From assembly GCA_016906335.1 (NCBI GenBank), contig JADEYG010000012.1:806001-870000 (forward strand): a DNA stretch of 64,000 bases, written 5' to 3'. Positions 38,451-46,363 of this stretch are shown in pieces; position 1 is the stretch's first letter, and each line of letters starts with the position of its first letter. Made by a program: the position numbers and the translations under genes. The notes beneath the pieces were generated by a model, which saw nothing but the letters and a program-made list of their open reading frames with translations, had not been told where the DNA came from and made no database searches. This DNA is from Novakomyces olei (taxonomy: Eukaryota).

Positions 38451-39783
38451 TCAGCCTTCCATCTCATCATCACCACCTCGCTCCATAGAGACGACACTCA
38501 TGCACTGGTACTTGTGAGCATAACTAGATTTCCAAAGCCTGATCATTCCATCATCACCAGCACTGCTCAATATCGTTCCGGTGATGTTGAAAGAGACCCG
38601 CCAAACTTGTGATTTATGGTCATCAAAATCAGCAATAAGCTCCACCAAGTAAGATGCACCAGAATGACTATCACTATCGTCATCTTCATCGTCGTCATCA
38701 TCATCATCCTCGCCCTCTCCTTCCACGCCATTCAGTCCATCAGCAGCGGCAGAAGCCTTATCCGGCCGTGCACCCAGACCTTCGTTATCCAGAGCCGTCG
38801 AGGCCTCTCCAGCTTGCTGTCTCCTTCGCCGCTTTGAATTCGACTCTGTAAGCTTGAATATCCTGACATGCCCATCGCGACAAGCAGTCGCAACTAGCTG
38901 ATACGATTTCCCCATACTACGGCCCCAAGTAATATCCCGTACCAGGTCAGTATGACCCTCCAGGGCCTCACCGGGCTGCCATTTGCCGGCACGGTCAGTG
39001 CGCCATACCCGCACTGTATTCATAGCACCGACGGCAATCTGCTGACCGTTCCAGCGTGACGGGCACCAAGTAAGACAAAAAGAAGCCTCGCGATCACGTG
39101 GAGGCGGCTGTTGCAGTACCATAAGCTCGTCCATCAGCGTCCAGTGCGCAATATTGTTTGGCTCCAGGGCTTCATAGACTCGCAAATACGCGTCTGCCGA
39201 TATAGAAGCGAGCCGAAGGCCAACGTGCTCCGGAGCAAACCATATATCGTGCACGGCAGCACGTGAGTCTGCCAATCGAGCTTTCTCGACCCATCGTTTA
39301 CCGGAATTTTTGGGCGCTTTGATTAGGAATTGTAATTAAAAACAAAGTTAAAAATGTGAAAGATTTAATTATTTTTAATTAATTGTTTATGTAAATTTTT
39401 GAATAATAATGAAGAATGAAAACAAAATTAAAGCAAAAATAGAGAATTTGAATAAAAATAAAACATAAACAAACAACTAGAAATATGGGCAAAGCACTGT
39501 TCAGCTTACCGTGAGGCTGCTCTTGGAATATCCGGACAGTACGGTCAACGGATGCGGTGGCAATTACTTGCCCATGCTCAGGGTGAGCCCAAATGACTTT
39601 TAGTAATGTCGCATCGGCGGCTTTACAGCTGTCGCTCTCATCCCACGAATCTGTTTCTTCCACGTAATCAAAGACCTTGAGCCTCAAGTCCGATGAGCAA
39701 GTGGCAAGGCGTTTCCCATAGTAGTCGTATGCAATATCATGGATCAGATCCTTATGATCTGTCCGAATCACTCGCGCCTGCAT
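38451..39783 (-). CDS. seh1: WD40 nucleoporin / SEA(GATOR2) subunit Seh1 (2 exons)
   Basis: Motifs HKDLIHDIAYDYYGKRLATCSSD, WAHPEHGQVIA, FAPEHVGLRLA, LVATACRDGHVRIFKL and VWRVSFNITGTILSSAGDDG. Confidence 0.95.
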
Positions 39784-40011
39784 TGATTATGGATGGCTGA
39801 AGGGTTTGCCGTATAGTGTCATGATATGTAAATTCACAATATGAATATTAAAAAAATAATGATTATTAAAATAATGATTATTCAAAATAATATCTATTAA
39901 AATAATGAATATTAATTTTATTCTCACTCCCAAGCGATATTATCGTGGTACACGAGATATACACATTGTAACAAAAGGGATACATGGTATAAAATCTAAT
40001 GCTATTTAATG

Positions 40012-40837
40012 CTACATGACGGCGGGCTCACGCCCAATGCTGGTCCAGTATTCGCGTCGGGCAGCAAATAATTCATCTGTCCATTGTAAGACGAGCTTGT
40101 TGTTAATACCATCGCGAACGCTGGTAAATTGACTCAAATCTTTTGCGTCGTTAGACTGGCGCTCATACTCGTACATTTGTACAAGCAGCTCGTACTTGTC
40201 CACGTCTTTGACGAAAAGAGCTTCTGGAGTAGTACGCGTCTCGTATTCTATAAACAAATCCATCAACTCGCGTCCACGTGCCCTATACTCAGCCGTATCC
40301 GGCAGCAGTGTGACAATGTCCTTCATCGCTTGTAGCTCACGGCAATGCTTCTCCTCTATCATCCATTAGTCTTTCGTCAGAAAATGAAGCAGGCAGCAGA
40401 AAGCCAAGTACCTTTGCTGACGCCATCGAGCGGAGTTATATCCCCCACAAGCGACTCTGCCATATCGTGTACGAGCGCTAGTCTGACGCACTTGTTGGCA
40501 TCGAGCGATGAATCCGTACTCAGCATACATATCACTGCCATTCGATACATATGGTCCGCACAAGATTCTGCCGTTAGCTAATGCATTCTATTTTGCCTTT
40601 GATTTTTATGGACTATTCCCTGCTTCTTTGAGGCTTGGCCTCTTGGCTTGTCGGGCTCGCTTCCCATCTCTTCCTGTTCAGCATACCCGGATTTGGAACA
40701 CGATGGTTAATCCAGCCCGTGCGCGGAGTCAGTTTGAGCCTCTGTATTATATTCAGAAAGCTCAAGACTGACGCTGGCTCGGACGACACGTCCGGTACGG
40801 AGGCCAATTGGCCATCGCGATGCGGCGGTACAAGCAT
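40012..40837 (-). CDS. HD-domain 5'-deoxynucleotidase (HDDC2/YGK1-like), multi-exon
   Basis: Motifs [42 protein letters not shown] and FVKDVDKYE. Confidence 0.9.
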
Positions 40838-41010
40838 GAACTCGAGAACTGCCGATTAGTTTGGTTAGCGGCGTATAAGAAATAAATAACGCAGAAATAA
40901 ATAACGCTTACAACGACAACGGAGACGATAACGCGCGCTAGTGCGCGCGGAATATTTATTGTAAGAAATACAGTAGAGTATATAAGTTTATTAATAGAGT
41001 ATGAATAAAT

Positions 41011-41085
41011 ATAGCAATAATAAATATAACAATAATAAATACAACAATAATAAATACAACAATAATAAATACAACAATAATAAAT
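41011..41085. repeat. 15-nt tandem repeat (ACAACAATAATAAAT) x~5
   Basis: Three perfect and two near-perfect copies. Confidence 0.9.
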
Positions 41086-41391
41086 ACAACAACAAGAAAC
41101 AACAATAATGAATACAGTACAAGGATGAGGCAAAATGTGGTCCGCCAAGACGTACGCTGATTGCCTTGTTAATACTGCGCATATACGGTGGTCACTTTAC
41201 TCATCTCGCGTTATGAAATGGACGACGGGAAATGTACGTGTATAAACAATCGAATAAAATTGACATATTCCTACACGAAATTGCTCTGAGAGCACAACGT
41301 ACATTGTGAGCACAGCTTTACTGCTGCCAATATACAATGTGTCGGGCGATCCGACACTAAAATACACAAGCTTGCTTACGTCACAAAAGAC

Positions 41392-44300
41392 TTATGCGTC
41401 CAAATAGTCTGCTACACTGGCAACAGAATAAATAAGCCGTGCCTGGCAAGAAGCCTCACTGGCCAGCAGCGCGATGTAGACACGCTGGGCCACACTGAGG
41501 TTTGCAGAGGCTCCAAAAGTACACCAGTCACGGTAGGAAATAGCGTGTGGACACATGCAGACTTTCTTCAAAAACGCCATGACGGAGTTGGGCACAAGCA
41601 TAGAAATTTCACGATAGTCATAGTCATCCTTCATGATCCCAAACAGCCGCTGAGCACTGTACCAAATTGCATCTCGGAACGGTGTGGAGTCCAGCTTTGA
41701 CACTCCCAAGTCTCGGCCCACCGAGTCAAGTGCCGGTTTGGCTGCACTGCTCCTGGCACTGGCCAAATCCTCCATGGCTGTGAGATCGTCGAGTGCCTCC
41801 ATGGCATTATGAAACTCGCGTTCAAACAGCTCGTCCATCTGTGGGATGTAGCGGCCAATAATAGCGGAAGCTTGATCTTCCCAGCTGTACTCTCCAAGCT
41901 GCAGTATATCCTGGTCACTGCTCTTTGAAAAATAGCGTCCATTACCGGCCAAAGCGTCCGCCTCTAGTGGACTGCGTGGCACGTATCCCCTGGCAGTGTA
42001 CCTCGAGGCATCTTGCAGCATAATCCCCACTGGCCTATCATCCGCATTTCTGCCTGCACGATCAGCTGTACCCAGTGTCGAAGCGGCCGCTGCCCTTCGA
42101 CGCAGACGGGGCAAAGTGCTTGATTGTAGATTGCTGCCTTCGCTACTGGCACTGTCACCTTGAAGAGTGGCACTACCACCATCAAAATCAGCACCCGTTT
42201 TGCCTGTTTCCAATCGCGATAGCTGAGCAAGCGGTGAGGCAGTTGACGGAGCCGATGTGGAAGTAGTAGGAGCCACAGGACTCGCAGCAAGTGCAGAAGC
42301 GGGTGCTATAATACTACAACTGCCATTGCCATTGCCACTGCCAATGCCTCCAGTGCTCTTACCCTCAGCGTTACTCCGTGGCGATGGAGGCCGACTCGAT
42401 GTTTGCAGCTCGCCTGTTCGCGAGTCAATGCACTGCTCAAAGCTGTGCAGACGGTTAATCTCTCTCATCGATCCAGTCTGCTCTGCTCCATTAGCTTTGT
42501 CACCACACCGAGCCAGACGCGCCCGGAGCAAATGCTGCAGGGAAAGGTACTCGCCTGACTGAGCACTGTCGTTATTATTGTCGTTGTTATTGTCGTTATT
42601 ATTGCTGCTACTGCTGCTGCTGCCGTTATTGTTGTTATTGCTACTACTACTACTGCTGCCGAGCCCTTGTCCCTGGACGCCGTAGGCAAAGGCGTCCACG
42701 AACGAGGGCACAGTCAGTTTTGCCAGTGGCGAGTGACGTATAAGGCTGTCGTAAAGGTTCTGTGAGATTTGGTTGCGTACTTTATAGCTCGGATGGAACA
42801 GGTCCTTGGGCCTCAAGGAGCCAAGCTCCTGTAGCCAGCGCAGTTCAGAATCAATCGTGTTTGAGTCCTGTGGTGGCAGCGAGGCAGGAGCTATAGCGGG
42901 CGAGCGTACACACGACCCTCCAAGGGTATCCGCCTCTGGAACTAGGGCAAAAGACAGAGCCTGCTGGCACCGGGCAGAGAAGAAGCATACACAGGCCATT
43001 GCCTGGACTAAGGCAGCCATTGTCCAAAACTCTGTACTATCCTTGGGGCCAGAGTTCCCATGCAACAGTTCACGGACATGCTCCCTGCGAAAGCCCCAGG
43101 GACACCGGATAAGCAGAGGCAGGTAAGGCGCCAGGCGACGGAACCTGGACGGAGCGTGATCCAGGCCTTTGAGCCACTCACACTCTGCAACAGTGGCACT
43201 TTCCTCAAAAAAGGCCGATAGCAGGGAAAGATAGTACTGGCAAGACATTACACTGGCCGTCATTATGCCCAGGTAAAGCTTGTAGGCCAGTGGCAATGGG
43301 CCATTGTTTGAATGGATGAGCCACTCAAACGTCTCGTAAACGCTACCAAGGTATCTCGGGAAATACGCCAGCATTTTACTGATGTTTGTAACTCGACCGT
43401 ACTGCAAAAACGACCGGATAAACAGCCGCGTCAAGTCTGGTCCTGCTCTCCACCTTGGGCCCACGATTCCGGAGGGCACACTCGTGCCCAAAGTGGCAGC
43501 TCGACGAGGCGAACTGTCCTGCCTCGCCCGTCTCTTGTTCGCCATTGATTTTCCCTTGGCATTATAGCTATTGCTATTATTCATATTATCGCTGCCCTGC
43601 TGGTACGAGCTAAATGGTGTTCGTGAAAAAGCAAATAGCGGACTGGGCTCCGTTATCCGCGACTGTGACTGCTGACGGGTCATGTTTTTAGCATTGCCCG
43701 TGGGCCTGAATGCGGAGGCATTAAAGGAAGAGCCGCTATTAAAAGTCACTGCTGTGTTAGGACTCTCATTCATGTCCCTCGTAGAGCTTAGACCAGACCG
43801 GCCAGAGACATTGCTCCGAGTCCTTGTGGATATTGGGATAGCAGAGGAAGAAATTGATCGGGCATCCGTGTCCTGCGCTGCCATTTCAAGTGCTGGACTC
43901 GGTGTGCTTTGGAGAGAGTAGGAATCTTCTCCTTTTCCGTCTCCTTCTTCCACCATACTAGCTTCCTCATCTGCTTCGTCTTCCACGTCTTCTTCCTCGT
44001 CTTCATACATTTCAATTTCCTCGCTATTGCCGCTAAAATCGCTCAGCATGTCCAGCGAAAACAGGGAACTGTCGTAAACCGCCGACCCTGGGCCAGGGCT
44101 CTGTCGGTTTCCCACTGAAGGCCGGCTGCCAAAAGACGCCTTGCTGCCAAAGGAGAACGATGAAAATGAATCTGAAAAAACAGAGAGCCGACGAGGTTTA
44201 CGTCGCCGTTTTGAAGAAGTGCCTACATTTGTCGCAAACCCTACAACCTCTTGCGGCGCAATAAAACAACTGGGAGAAGGTGAAATTAAATCAGGTGCAA

Positions 44301-45360
44301 AATTAACAACTTGCCGAAGTCGACGCAATTGACTGCGACAGCATCGTCTTACATCAGCATAAGGGCAGTCATTGCTCAAGTTTAAAGCTCGCAGCATATA
44401 TGCCCCGAGCAATTCTCGCCGGGCCGATTGCTCCTCAATATTATTGGCAGCTGGATCGTTCTTCATTTCCTCTTCCAACACCATTTCGTCAACGCCATAG
44501 GGACCAATTGATCCGAGTGTCGTACTCTGATAATTTGTAGAGCCATTAAATCTTTCGTCGCCCGCCAATTTAGATCTAAACTGAACTCCCGCAATAATAG
44601 GAGTTCCCTCATTGTTTAGGCCAGAAAGGTTTGAAAACGAATCGTTTGGCGATAAGACGCTGGGCGACTCTAATCTAAATTTTGCCAAATTCTCTGCATT
44701 TTCTGCATCTTCTTCTACACTAAAGACTTCGTCCCAGGGAGAGTCACCTGATGTAGGCTGCTGCTGTTGCTGTTGTTGTTCTTGTTGCTGTTGTGCTAGC
44801 CGGCCGTCTTTACTAGAATTGTAAGCAGCATTGGCAGTTTGTGGAGCACGTGTTGAAGGCGATGGAGCAGGCCGAGGAGTTTCTGCCTCCGCAATAGCCG
44901 CTGGACGAGAGTTGGGGGCTTTTGAAATCAGACTACGCCAAGCCTGGTTTCCGTACAGCGTGCGAATCAAAGACTCGAGGAGCTGAGATAGACTTTCAAG
45001 AGCATTGCGCCGTAGTGCAGGGTCATCAGTCTGAAGGCTATTGAATATGCATAATTGCGCACGGCTAGCATGAATATAGTCGAGCAATTGGCTAGACCCT
45101 AGACATATTTAATTGTGGAAACAACAAAGAAAGGATGAAACGTCAGAAGAAAGCAATCAAATAAATTAAATTAAACAAAAACAAATAAATATATAAATAA
45201 ATAAATAAATAAATAGATTAAACAAAATTAGCAAGAACGATGAATAAAATAATACAGAGGGTAAACACGATTTGGAAAATTAAATAAAATGCTTACGCCT
45301 TCTAGTCGGCCGGTGCCCGCTATCACGAGCACTGCCACTAGGTTTGGCCGGTTCAAACAT
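41392..45360 (-). CDS. Sestrin (PA26 family) with long low-complexity insertions, about 1260 aa (2 exons)
   Basis: N-domain GRVTNISKMLAYFPRYL..GPLPLAYKLYLGIMTAS..CQY..EWLKGL..APSRFRRL..PW..WTMAALVQA. C-domain YSWEDQ..FRDAIW..FGIMKDDYDY..FLKKVCMCP..EASCQARLIY. Exon 1 (ATG 45360, MFEPAKPSG...) splices in phase through a GTAAGC donor to an acceptor near 45100. Confidence 0.9.
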
Positions 45361-46363
45361 GCAAAGAAATGACTTTCGGCCTCGCAATAGTAAGGATACT
45401 CCAGCAAAAAATGAACCTTAGTGTACAAAAATAGCCCCAATATATAATCAAGTCAATACTTTTAGTAGTAAATACGCGGGTAATATTCACGGACGTAATA
45501 ACGTTGCGCCCAAAAGGAGAATTTCTTGCTAAAAAGCGGGTGAGACCGGTGACAGAAGGCTCTGTAAATTAGAGCGAACCTTTGACGAGAAGTTTCAAAC
45601 GACCTGCAAGACAGGGCAAAAGGAAATCACTTTTTAAAGTCTAGAATTTTCAGCGGAAAGTCAATTGAATAGCCAGCAGTAGTAGCTGCAATTGCTTATT
45701 AGGCGCAAGGTGGTGCTTTTGAATGTAAAGCCAAATAAGCCTGACGAGTCCAGACAAAGTGTTTCCGGCCCTTTAAAAATTGCCTAATACCATAAATGTA
45801 CAAACGTCTCGCAGGCACGCATTAACCAAGATAATACGAACGGTTTTGAAGCTTAGCGCATGACAGCAATTGCTGATACTGACGCTGATTTTTAAAGGTT
45901 TGGCAATTAATTACATGGCACGATGCCCGCTTGCTGATCCCCTTCGTCAACCTTTCTTGTCGGCCAAATCAAATAAAACAAAATATTGTACAGATAAATT
46001 GAACAGGAGACGCTTTAACGCCTCGTCACTCGTTGACGCCGAGATTGATGCCCCCCTTCAATCGGGACATACGGAAATTAGAGTAATGTGGAGAACTGAT
46101 CCTCACGCTCCCGAATAGATACATTATTGCTTAGTCGCCGTTTATCATGATAGCCATGGCTCAATACGTAATGCCCGGTTTATCTTGAACCATTGTGAAA
46201 TCGAGAATGTCTCAAGACTGATTTATCTTATAAACTATCATTAGTCTACTATAATCCTGCTGTTGAGATATACGTTTATCTGGACCAAGCAAGGCACGTG
46301 ACTCCGCTATTGACGATATCATCCTCAAAAGCATAGAGCCCTTTGTTGGCCTTTGCGCAAAAG

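Follow-up and report, generated by a model that had tools for sequence, protein, structure and literature searches.

A divergent fungal Sestrin with glutamine at the position of the amine-binding glutamate and an intact GATOR2-docking hinge

A 64,000-nucleotide stretch of Novakomyces olei (assembly GCA_016906335.1, contig JADEYG010000012.1, positions 806,001 to 870,000 of the forward strand; hereafter the window, to which all nucleotide positions refer) encodes on its reverse strand a genuine, divergent fungal Sestrin, in which the position of glutamate 451 of human Sestrin2 is occupied by glutamine (Gln1208). In animals, Sestrins are the standard example of a leucine sensor for mTORC1. Compared residue by residue with human Sestrin2, the side of the fungal protein that docks on GATOR2 is largely kept, whereas the side that senses leucine and releases the complex is largely gone. 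By analogy with the human system, the protein is probably a leucine-blind docking protein, whose inhibition of SEACAT (the GATOR2 equivalent) and TORC1 would be set by its amount or by modification of its disordered regions.

The Sestrin open reading frame (ORF) is intact over 1238 codons from stop to stop, with no internal stop, and ends in a stop codon at 41392-41394; its stop-to-stop translation is referred to as P0001, and residue numbers of the fungal protein refer to it. PA26/Sestrin was the single Pfam family matched by P0001 (E 6.9e-57; score 193.8 bits, cut-off 29.4; two stretches). Human Sestrin2 was the only real match in a HMMER search against PDB chains (5dj4_A; E 2.7e-30, 108.5 bits), P0001 561-746 being aligned to human 64-241 and P0001 1137-1236 to human 382-479. 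A fragment covering P0001 540-1238 was folded by AlphaFold2 with an alignment of 136 homologues. The resulting model had a mean predicted local distance difference test score (pLDDT) of 70.7 and a predicted template-modelling score of 0.72, with pLDDT >90 for 296 core residues and below 50 in the linker at fragment positions 221-313 and 361-475. Its top Foldseek matches were all human Sestrin2 (template-modelling score 0.81-0.85, normalised to target). VIA-align superposed it on 5dj4_E with a Z score of 43.3 and a root-mean-square deviation of 2.4 A over 349 of 365 residues (26% identity, both lobes covered), and on the GATOR2-bound Sestrin2 chains 9lwf_X and 9lvj_U with Z scores of 36.1 and 35.0, respectively. 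The core of P0001, as modelled, is the two-lobed, all-helical AhpD-like fold of Sestrins. Profile, predicted fold and human Sestrin2 matches thus bear out the identification of the gene as a Sestrin in the first-pass annotation, which had been made from the sequence by eye.

Human Sestrin2 numbers are converted to P0001 by adding 497 (human 64-103), 498 (104-137), 500 (138-183), 506 (184-241), 732 (338-373), 755 (382-446) or 757 (447 onward). Taken alone, the match over human 339-373 scores poorly (8.8 bits), but it is consistent with the full-length family alignment described below, where the W344 column holds Trp in 128/136 homologues. The HMMER alignment upheld each residue assignment of the by-eye reading: E451 corresponds to Q1208 and D406/D407 are kept as D1161/D1162, followed by Tyr-Asp-Tyr (both also by direct codon reading); R390 is kept as R1145; H454 is Y1211; G1199 stands where W444 would be; S190 is T696; and the redox residues C125/Y127 are kept as C623/Y625, with H132 replaced by L630. 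The lid insertion noted at first pass is real: the 18 residues that separate F367 from D385 in human Sestrin2 have become 41 in P0001 (F1099 to D1140). Threonines are not enriched in the insertion. The lid as a whole has no TYNT motif and contains four acidic residues (D1107, D1108, E1113 and D1114); it was modelled at pLDDT 61-76 (fragment 571-600). At the position of the TYNT motif, P0001 reads L-D-D-L at canonical spacing and T-A-M-E in a shifted reading. T386 is replaced by S1141 and H86 by Phe, and the lid-latch partner Y375 is absent; hydrophobic F1144 and L1204 (F447 to Leu) line pocket positions 389 and 447. Elsewhere, the P-W of the LAHRPW motif is kept, the motif reading L-I-R-C-P-W with an A167 to Ile change shared with 1/136 homologues.

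The weight placed on Gln1208 depends on its register and on the base call. The last helix of the model (fragment 667-698, pLDDT 89-98) is continuous and without insertions or deletions, and the VIA-align ranges end with fragment 698 opposite chain residue 480, the same offset as in the sequence alignment. This check was made at the level of aligned ranges rather than single residues; the shared end offset and the continuous, confident helix place Q1208 at the E451 position. Reading of the sequence found no Asp or Glu between P0001 1199 and 1217. The comparison of a predicted structure with human Sestrin2, proposed in the first-pass annotation, therefore agrees with its register. As to the base call, a contig assembled from sequencing run X2 (another study, ~5x) has 0 differences over 41300-41684, the Gln codon included, and over most of the gene, so that the CAG is not an assembly slip. 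The high-depth run X1, which may be the source of the assembly, is likewise identical. X1 and X2 appear to come from the same strain or species and thus confirm the base call, not its conservation, while runs X3 and X4 gave matches almost only to low-complexity repeats and no relative's sequence at the pocket.

When 1.84 billion cluster representatives were searched exhaustively with HMMER, 591 proteins matched at E <= 0.001, of which 310 were at <= 1e-10 and 51 at <= 1e-30. Homologue counts rest on the best 150 of these 591, with fungi and other groups counted together. The best match is only 39% identical to P0001, and there is hence no close relative in the searched library. The last 220 residues of all 150 were aligned by MAFFT; a full-length alignment was made from 136, the other 14 having been dropped as fragmentary by length or by a single matched stretch (P0065, P0107, P0118, P0121, P0125, P0131, P0132, P0134, P0135, P0137, P0139, P0140, P0148 and P0150). 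The E451 column held E in 145, D in 2, K in 1 and a gap in 2 sequences of the first alignment (n=150), and E in 134, D in 1, K in 1 and Q in 0 of the second (n=136). Gln at 451 is thus unique to P0001 among the best 150 of the 591 homologues, and the question raised at first pass, whether it is shared with other Sestrins, is answered by 0/136 in the full-length alignment. In the literature found, no natural Gln at 451 is described, E451Q being named there, in structural work on the human GATOR2 complex, as a human laboratory mutant. Word-index protein searches with each of the two lobes gave no scored match among proteins of 680-2167 residues and are uninformative, as HMMER found 591.

The other columns of the full-length alignment separate what is unusual in P0001 from what is not. 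Arg was found at R390 in 126/135 homologues, Thr at T386 in 117/134, His at H454 in 112/136 and Trp at W189 in 131/136; the five DDYDY columns held D in 119/136, D in 116/136, Y in 115/136, D in 64/136 and Y in 134/136; the redox columns held Cys at 125 in 118/135 and Tyr at 127 in 110/135; and the release arginines were present in 74/136 (R338) and 16/135 (R404). Several substitutions that the first-pass annotation had listed as traits of this protein are ordinary outside animals: Gly for W444 (94/110 homologues with a residue there), Leu for H132 (33/135, with His in only 19/135) and Thr for S190 (26/136). Leu for F447 (90/134) and Phe for H86 (45/135) are likewise ordinary. A published survey of 213 non-animal Sestrins gives, in its accessible parts, H132 in 1.9%, T377 in 4.2%, Thr at 190 in 32.4%, Phe as the consensus at 86 and E451 in 79.8% (170/213), with DDYDY and W189 as the best-kept features (PMC11429811). 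P0001 resembles these proteins in keeping docking motifs better than pocket residues, and differs from them by its Gln at 451, no Gln case being named in the accessible parts of that survey or of PMC11836306, which deals with Sestrins of early-diverging fungi.

The functional reading of these residues draws on human Sestrin2 as described in the accessible parts of PMC12507694. There the E451Q mutant does not bind leucine, as the first-pass annotation had stated, and is constitutively on GATOR2, which was used to trap the complex for cryo-electron microscopy. Docking brings the acidic D406, D407, E345 and D364 against arginines of WDR24, with contributions from a hydrophobic patch and residues of Seh1; leucine closes the lid, orders the aL1-aL2 helices and pushes R404 onto R338, which repels R46 of WDR24, and the R404G and R338A mutants cannot be released by leucine (PMC12507694). 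According to the available portion of PMC11429811, moreover, T374 and T386 mutations abolish leucine binding, H86 latches Y375, and no single GATOR2 subunit is bound by Sestrin2.

On the docking side, P0001 keeps D1161, D1162, Y1163, Y1165, W695, E1077 (E345) and E1096 (D364 to Glu), together with hydrophobic residues at the equivalents of 351, 352, 355 and 472. On the release side, R338 is replaced by Q1070 and R404 by M1159. The equivalents of 337-338 and 403-404 pair as short strands in the model (strand marks at fragment 530-531 and 619-620); therefore, the R338/R404 geometry appears to be present with its charges gone. A mechanism can be proposed on this basis. With Q1208, a remodelled lid and no His-Tyr latch, the pocket would give no leucine response, and the loss of the R338/R404 charges would preclude ligand-driven release from the GATOR2 equivalent. 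The kept DDYDY hinge and its associated residues would then allow ligand-independent binding and inhibition of SEACAT through Sea2-Seh1, at a strength set by the abundance of the protein or by modifications in the linker and the N-terminal extension, both long and disordered. The Sestrin of this organism would restrain TORC1 according to stress or to its own abundance and would not act as an amino-acid sensor.

The window also holds a gene for Seh1, two genes downstream of the Sestrin gene and on the same strand; in human, Seh1 and WDR24 together make up the site on which Sestrin docks. Its best PDB matches were nucleoporin SEH1 chains (E 7.4e-70), which we take to be budding yeast entries, followed by human-complex chains (E 1e-40) and Sec13 (~1e-17). 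The organism thus has at least the Seh1 part of GATOR2/SEACAT. The Atlas clusters nearest to this Seh1 are mostly of Ascomycota, a lead by which the fungus is probably an ascomycete. If ~6000 genes are assumed for the genome, chance would, roughly, bring a particular partner within two genes in <1 in 1000 cases.

To place P0001 in the family, a FastTree tree was computed from 313 core columns and rooted at its midpoint for root-to-tip distances. P0001 fell into a clade of 15 (support 0.988) with P0002, P0005, P0007-P0012, P0015, P0045, P0046, P0057, P0061 and P0104. These 14 relatives have Glu (13) or Asp (1) at 451 and Arg or Lys at 390 in 12/14 cases, so the loss of E451 is specific to the lineage of P0001. 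The T374-type lid threonine is absent from the whole clade, many members of which have an acidic-aromatic lid segment, and 13 of the 14 relatives nevertheless keep Glu, which indicates that remodelling of the lid preceded the loss of Glu. In seven of the relatives (P0002, P0005, P0007, P0008, P0010, P0011 and P0012) an Asp/Glu-rich lid followed by Gly-Phe-Phe/Leu-Phe stands instead of TYNT, and six of these seven have Gly at the D407 position with E451 retained. Such a lid, with hydrophobic side chains of its own, could close the pocket differently in these relatives.

Several observations weigh against a leucine-blind docking protein. P0001 departs from the majority at 12/43 columns conserved at >= 85%, ranking 7th/137 for such departures (on a similar set of 42 columns), and four of the 12 are non-conservative (A167 to Ile, E193 to Ala, Y396-type to Ser and E451 to Gln). 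Judged from these counts, E451Q may simply reflect a protein that is drifting overall, and not a change directed at the pocket. The E193 to Ala change is unique to P0001 (Glu 126/136, Ala 0/136); the role of E193 is described as untested in the available portion of PMC11429811. Y349 and Q340, both WDR24-contact positions in human, are Ser and Gly in P0001, and with E193 to Ala these changes could weaken GATOR2 docking. Leucine blindness is argued by analogy with a human mutant, while the pocket of P0001 was already different in its W444 to Gly and F447 to Leu changes and in its lid. Finally, a protein that works wholly without ligand would have no need of R1145 and the two predicted linker helices, yet these are retained.

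Part of this evidence could instead describe a drifting or repurposed Sestrin, for which SEACAT regulation is lost or being lost and another role, in C-x-Y redox chemistry or as a disordered scaffold, has taken its place; we regard this as doubtful. It would account for the unique changes at the best-conserved functional columns (E193 to Ala and E451 to Gln), the Ser at 1151 (found in 0/135 other homologues), the L-I-R-C-P-W motif with its A167 to Ile change, and the terminal branch of P0001, at 0.875 against a median of 0.43, and the kept C623 and Y625 suit a redox role. Loss would also be common among relatives if the organism is an ascomycete, since Sestrin is reported missing from most Dikarya in the accessible part of PMC11836306. 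However, D-D-Y-D-Y is fully intact, although other residues also occur among the closest relatives at D406 (E, Q, S) and D407 (G, T, S), and the 1238-codon ORF has no stop. Moreover, the root-to-tip distance of P0001 (1.266) equals the median (rank 70/137), so the long terminal branch is better explained by missing close relatives than by clear acceleration.

The retained R1145 and linker helices, together with the nature of the substitution itself, would fit a changed ligand, an explanation that we consider unlikely. The ligand would be a small molecule that carries no charged alpha-amine; 2-oxo and 2-hydroxy acids, among them the keto acid of leucine, are examples, with R1145 holding the carboxylate and Gln1208 hydrogen-bonding the carbonyl or hydroxyl. 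Gln is a conservative, hydrogen-bonding swap rather than a pocket-filling one, S1141 supplies a hydroxyl at the T386 position, F1144 and L1204 are hydrophobic, and the two linker helices might form an aL1-aL2 switch. Nevertheless, the lid is longer and remodelled and lacks TYNT and the H86-Y375 latch, both release arginines are missing, and the number of departures at near-invariant columns makes specific re-tuning less likely than loss. It is more improbable still that the Glu to Gln change retuned the pocket to a carboxylic acid uncharged at C2, such as a branched-chain 2-oxo acid, by which a fungus that makes its own leucine would report branched-chain flux to TORC1 through SEACAT, with the position of the Seh1 gene reflecting a functional link.

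Least likely is a residual leucine or amino-acid sensor, in which another residue or a water network substitutes for the glutamate or the alignment is one turn off: its relatives without TYNT keep the 451 acid and Arg/Lys at 390, so that the pocket of the clade seems constrained with a different lid, and D1107, D1108, E1113 and D1114 could in principle reach the pocket, but the register is fixed by gapless, near-invariant flanks (K452-type R1209, L1215, E1218 and A1219) and by the structural offset, no acid lies in the helix turn around 1208, and E451Q alone suffices to abolish binding in human (available text of PMC12507694).

A natural carrier of the laboratory leucine-blinding substitution bears on whether docking or ligand sensing is ancestral in Sestrins, and P0001 offers a ready-made test object for that question. 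If it does dock on Sea2-Seh1, restrain TORC1 and ignore leucine, the view of docking as the older function, with sensing as a detachable layer, would gain support. PMC8945916 has argued that the family transduced stress and acquired leucine sensing late. The gain is limited: weak conservation of the pocket outside animals is already published (PMC11429811, accessible parts), and the functional claims made here are reasoned from residues. What appears to be new is the natural Gln at the E451 column of a fungal Sestrin, which makes P0001 a rather extreme member of a known family. Yeasts and other fungi are widely said to have no Sestrins, and the available portion of PMC10245982 states that homologues of the sensors have been lost in fungi. 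Fungal Sestrins nevertheless have precedent: Yarrowia lipolytica, a yeast, is recorded as having a Sestrin-like protein in the available portion of PMC11429811.

Compared with known proteins, P0001 shares with human Sestrin2 (5DJ4; 9LVJ/9LWF) the fold, C-x-Y, P-W, W189, R390, D-D-Y-D-Y and the C-terminal helix, and differs by an N-terminal extension of ~555 versus ~65 residues, a linker of ~310 versus ~120, and a total length of ~1254 versus 480. It has the same replacement of the amine-binding glutamate as the human E451Q mutant, in which, in contrast to P0001, the pocket, lid and release residues are otherwise all unchanged. Human Sestrin3 likewise inhibits TORC1 through GATOR2 with a weak or no leucine response, being described as a protein that 'binds leucine very weakly' (PMC11429811, accessible parts) or is 'completely leucine-insensitive' (PMC8945916); unlike in P0001, its TYNT and HSEKVH motifs are unchanged (PMC11429811, same parts). 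The N-terminal lobe of P0001 also resembles bacterial AhpD / carboxymuconolactone decarboxylase-like proteins (Z 11-13 over ~170 residues), which are single-lobed, lack the DDYDY hinge and stand outside the TOR pathway.

The positions of the features are collected in Table 1. Upstream of the main ORF a short first exon was read from the sequence, for which the AG listed there would be the sole in-frame acceptor; the intron would be 204 nucleotides long and the complete Sestrin probably ~1254 residues.

Table 1. Features of the Sestrin gene and of the neighbouring Seh1 gene in the window
Feature	Position	Strand	Basis or remark
Putative first exon	45296..45360	-	ATG 45360-45358, donor GT 45295-45294; read from sequence
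Putative start of exon 2	45091	-	AG 45093-45092
Main Sestrin ORF, P0001	41392..45108	-	Pfam PA26
SESN-A, N-terminal lobe, P0001 558-745	42874..43437	-	HMMER to human 64-241; pLDDT 86-98 (fragment 21-190)
C623-Q-Y625, redox C125/Y127 equivalents	43234..43242	-	HMMER alignment, family columns
W-T-M-A-A-L, P0001 695-700, WSLAEL counterpart	43009..43026	-	W189 kept, S190 to T, E193 to A
Linker, P0001 746-1054, ~310 residues	41947..42873	-	Mostly low-complexity, Ser/Asn/Ala/Gly-rich; predicted disordered
Two predicted linker helices, P0001 853-895	42424..42552	-	Fragment 314-329 and 340-356; pLDDT 59-83
SESN-C, C-terminal lobe, P0001 1055-1238	41395..41946	-	HMMER alignments, AlphaFold2 model, VIA-align
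Lid, P0001 1100-1139	41692..41811	-	~23 residues longer than human, without TYNT; helix then coil predicted, not hairpin
R1145, R390 equivalent	41674..41676	-	HMMER alignment; family column; R390 pairs with the leucine carboxylate in human
D-D-Y-D-Y, P0001 1161-1165, GATOR2-docking hinge	41614..41628	-	Codons GAT GAC at 41628-41623
Gln1208, codon CAG, at E451 position	41485..41487	-	Direct reading; column counts; run X2 contig
Seh1 gene	38451..39786	-	Two ORF pieces, 39379-39786 and 38451-39335; PDB match E 7.4e-70

Within the N-terminal extension, a D-C-P-Y-A-D-V-R-R motif (44344..44370, reverse strand; P0001 247-255) and a conserved helix are common to the nearest relatives, as aligned to P0002 and P0005. 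A pattern search found a similar Cys-Pro-aromatic-x-Asp-Val-Arg motif in 47/151 proteins, the query included, and the motif of P0001 matches the non-animal Sestrin MEME motif C-P-F-x-D-V-R given in the supplement of PMC11429811, as far as that is accessible. From their position and the consensus of the full-length alignment, we infer that the two predicted linker helices are candidate counterparts of human aL1-aL2. Coding low-complexity runs (Ser/Asn/Asp-rich and poly-Gln) at 42533-42669 and 44725-44861 draw partly matching contigs from all four sequencing runs, and depth there is uninformative on the gene. At 42252-42342 in the linker, run X1 contains two 60-letter contigs of depth ~3.5 with a one-letter difference, against ~1100 for the main contigs; either a rare variant or an error of sequencing accounts for the difference.

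Between the Sestrin and Seh1 genes lies a gene at 40012-40830 (reverse strand) with an HD_3 domain (E 7.7e-16, last exon) and, by eye, at least one short intron near 40366-40410. Gcn4-type sites have the consensus TGASTCA with the core TGACTC. Gcn4-type starvation control of the Sestrin promoter was considered and rejected: TGASTCA occurs 7 times in the window against 7.4 expected, never in the interval that separates the Sestrin gene from the next gene upstream, and the core, of which one copy lies at 46299-46304, is at chance level (27 in the window against 24.9 expected). No RNA families were found in the window by Rfam. The other genes of the window are of the usual fungal housekeeping kind and include those for ERG4/ERG24, a Kre9/KNH domain protein, IMP dehydrogenase, malic enzyme and a class II histone deacetylase. 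An intergenic, AT-rich tandem array with a unit of ~17-18 bases was seen by eye at ~41000-41130, shortly past the stop codon of the Sestrin gene.

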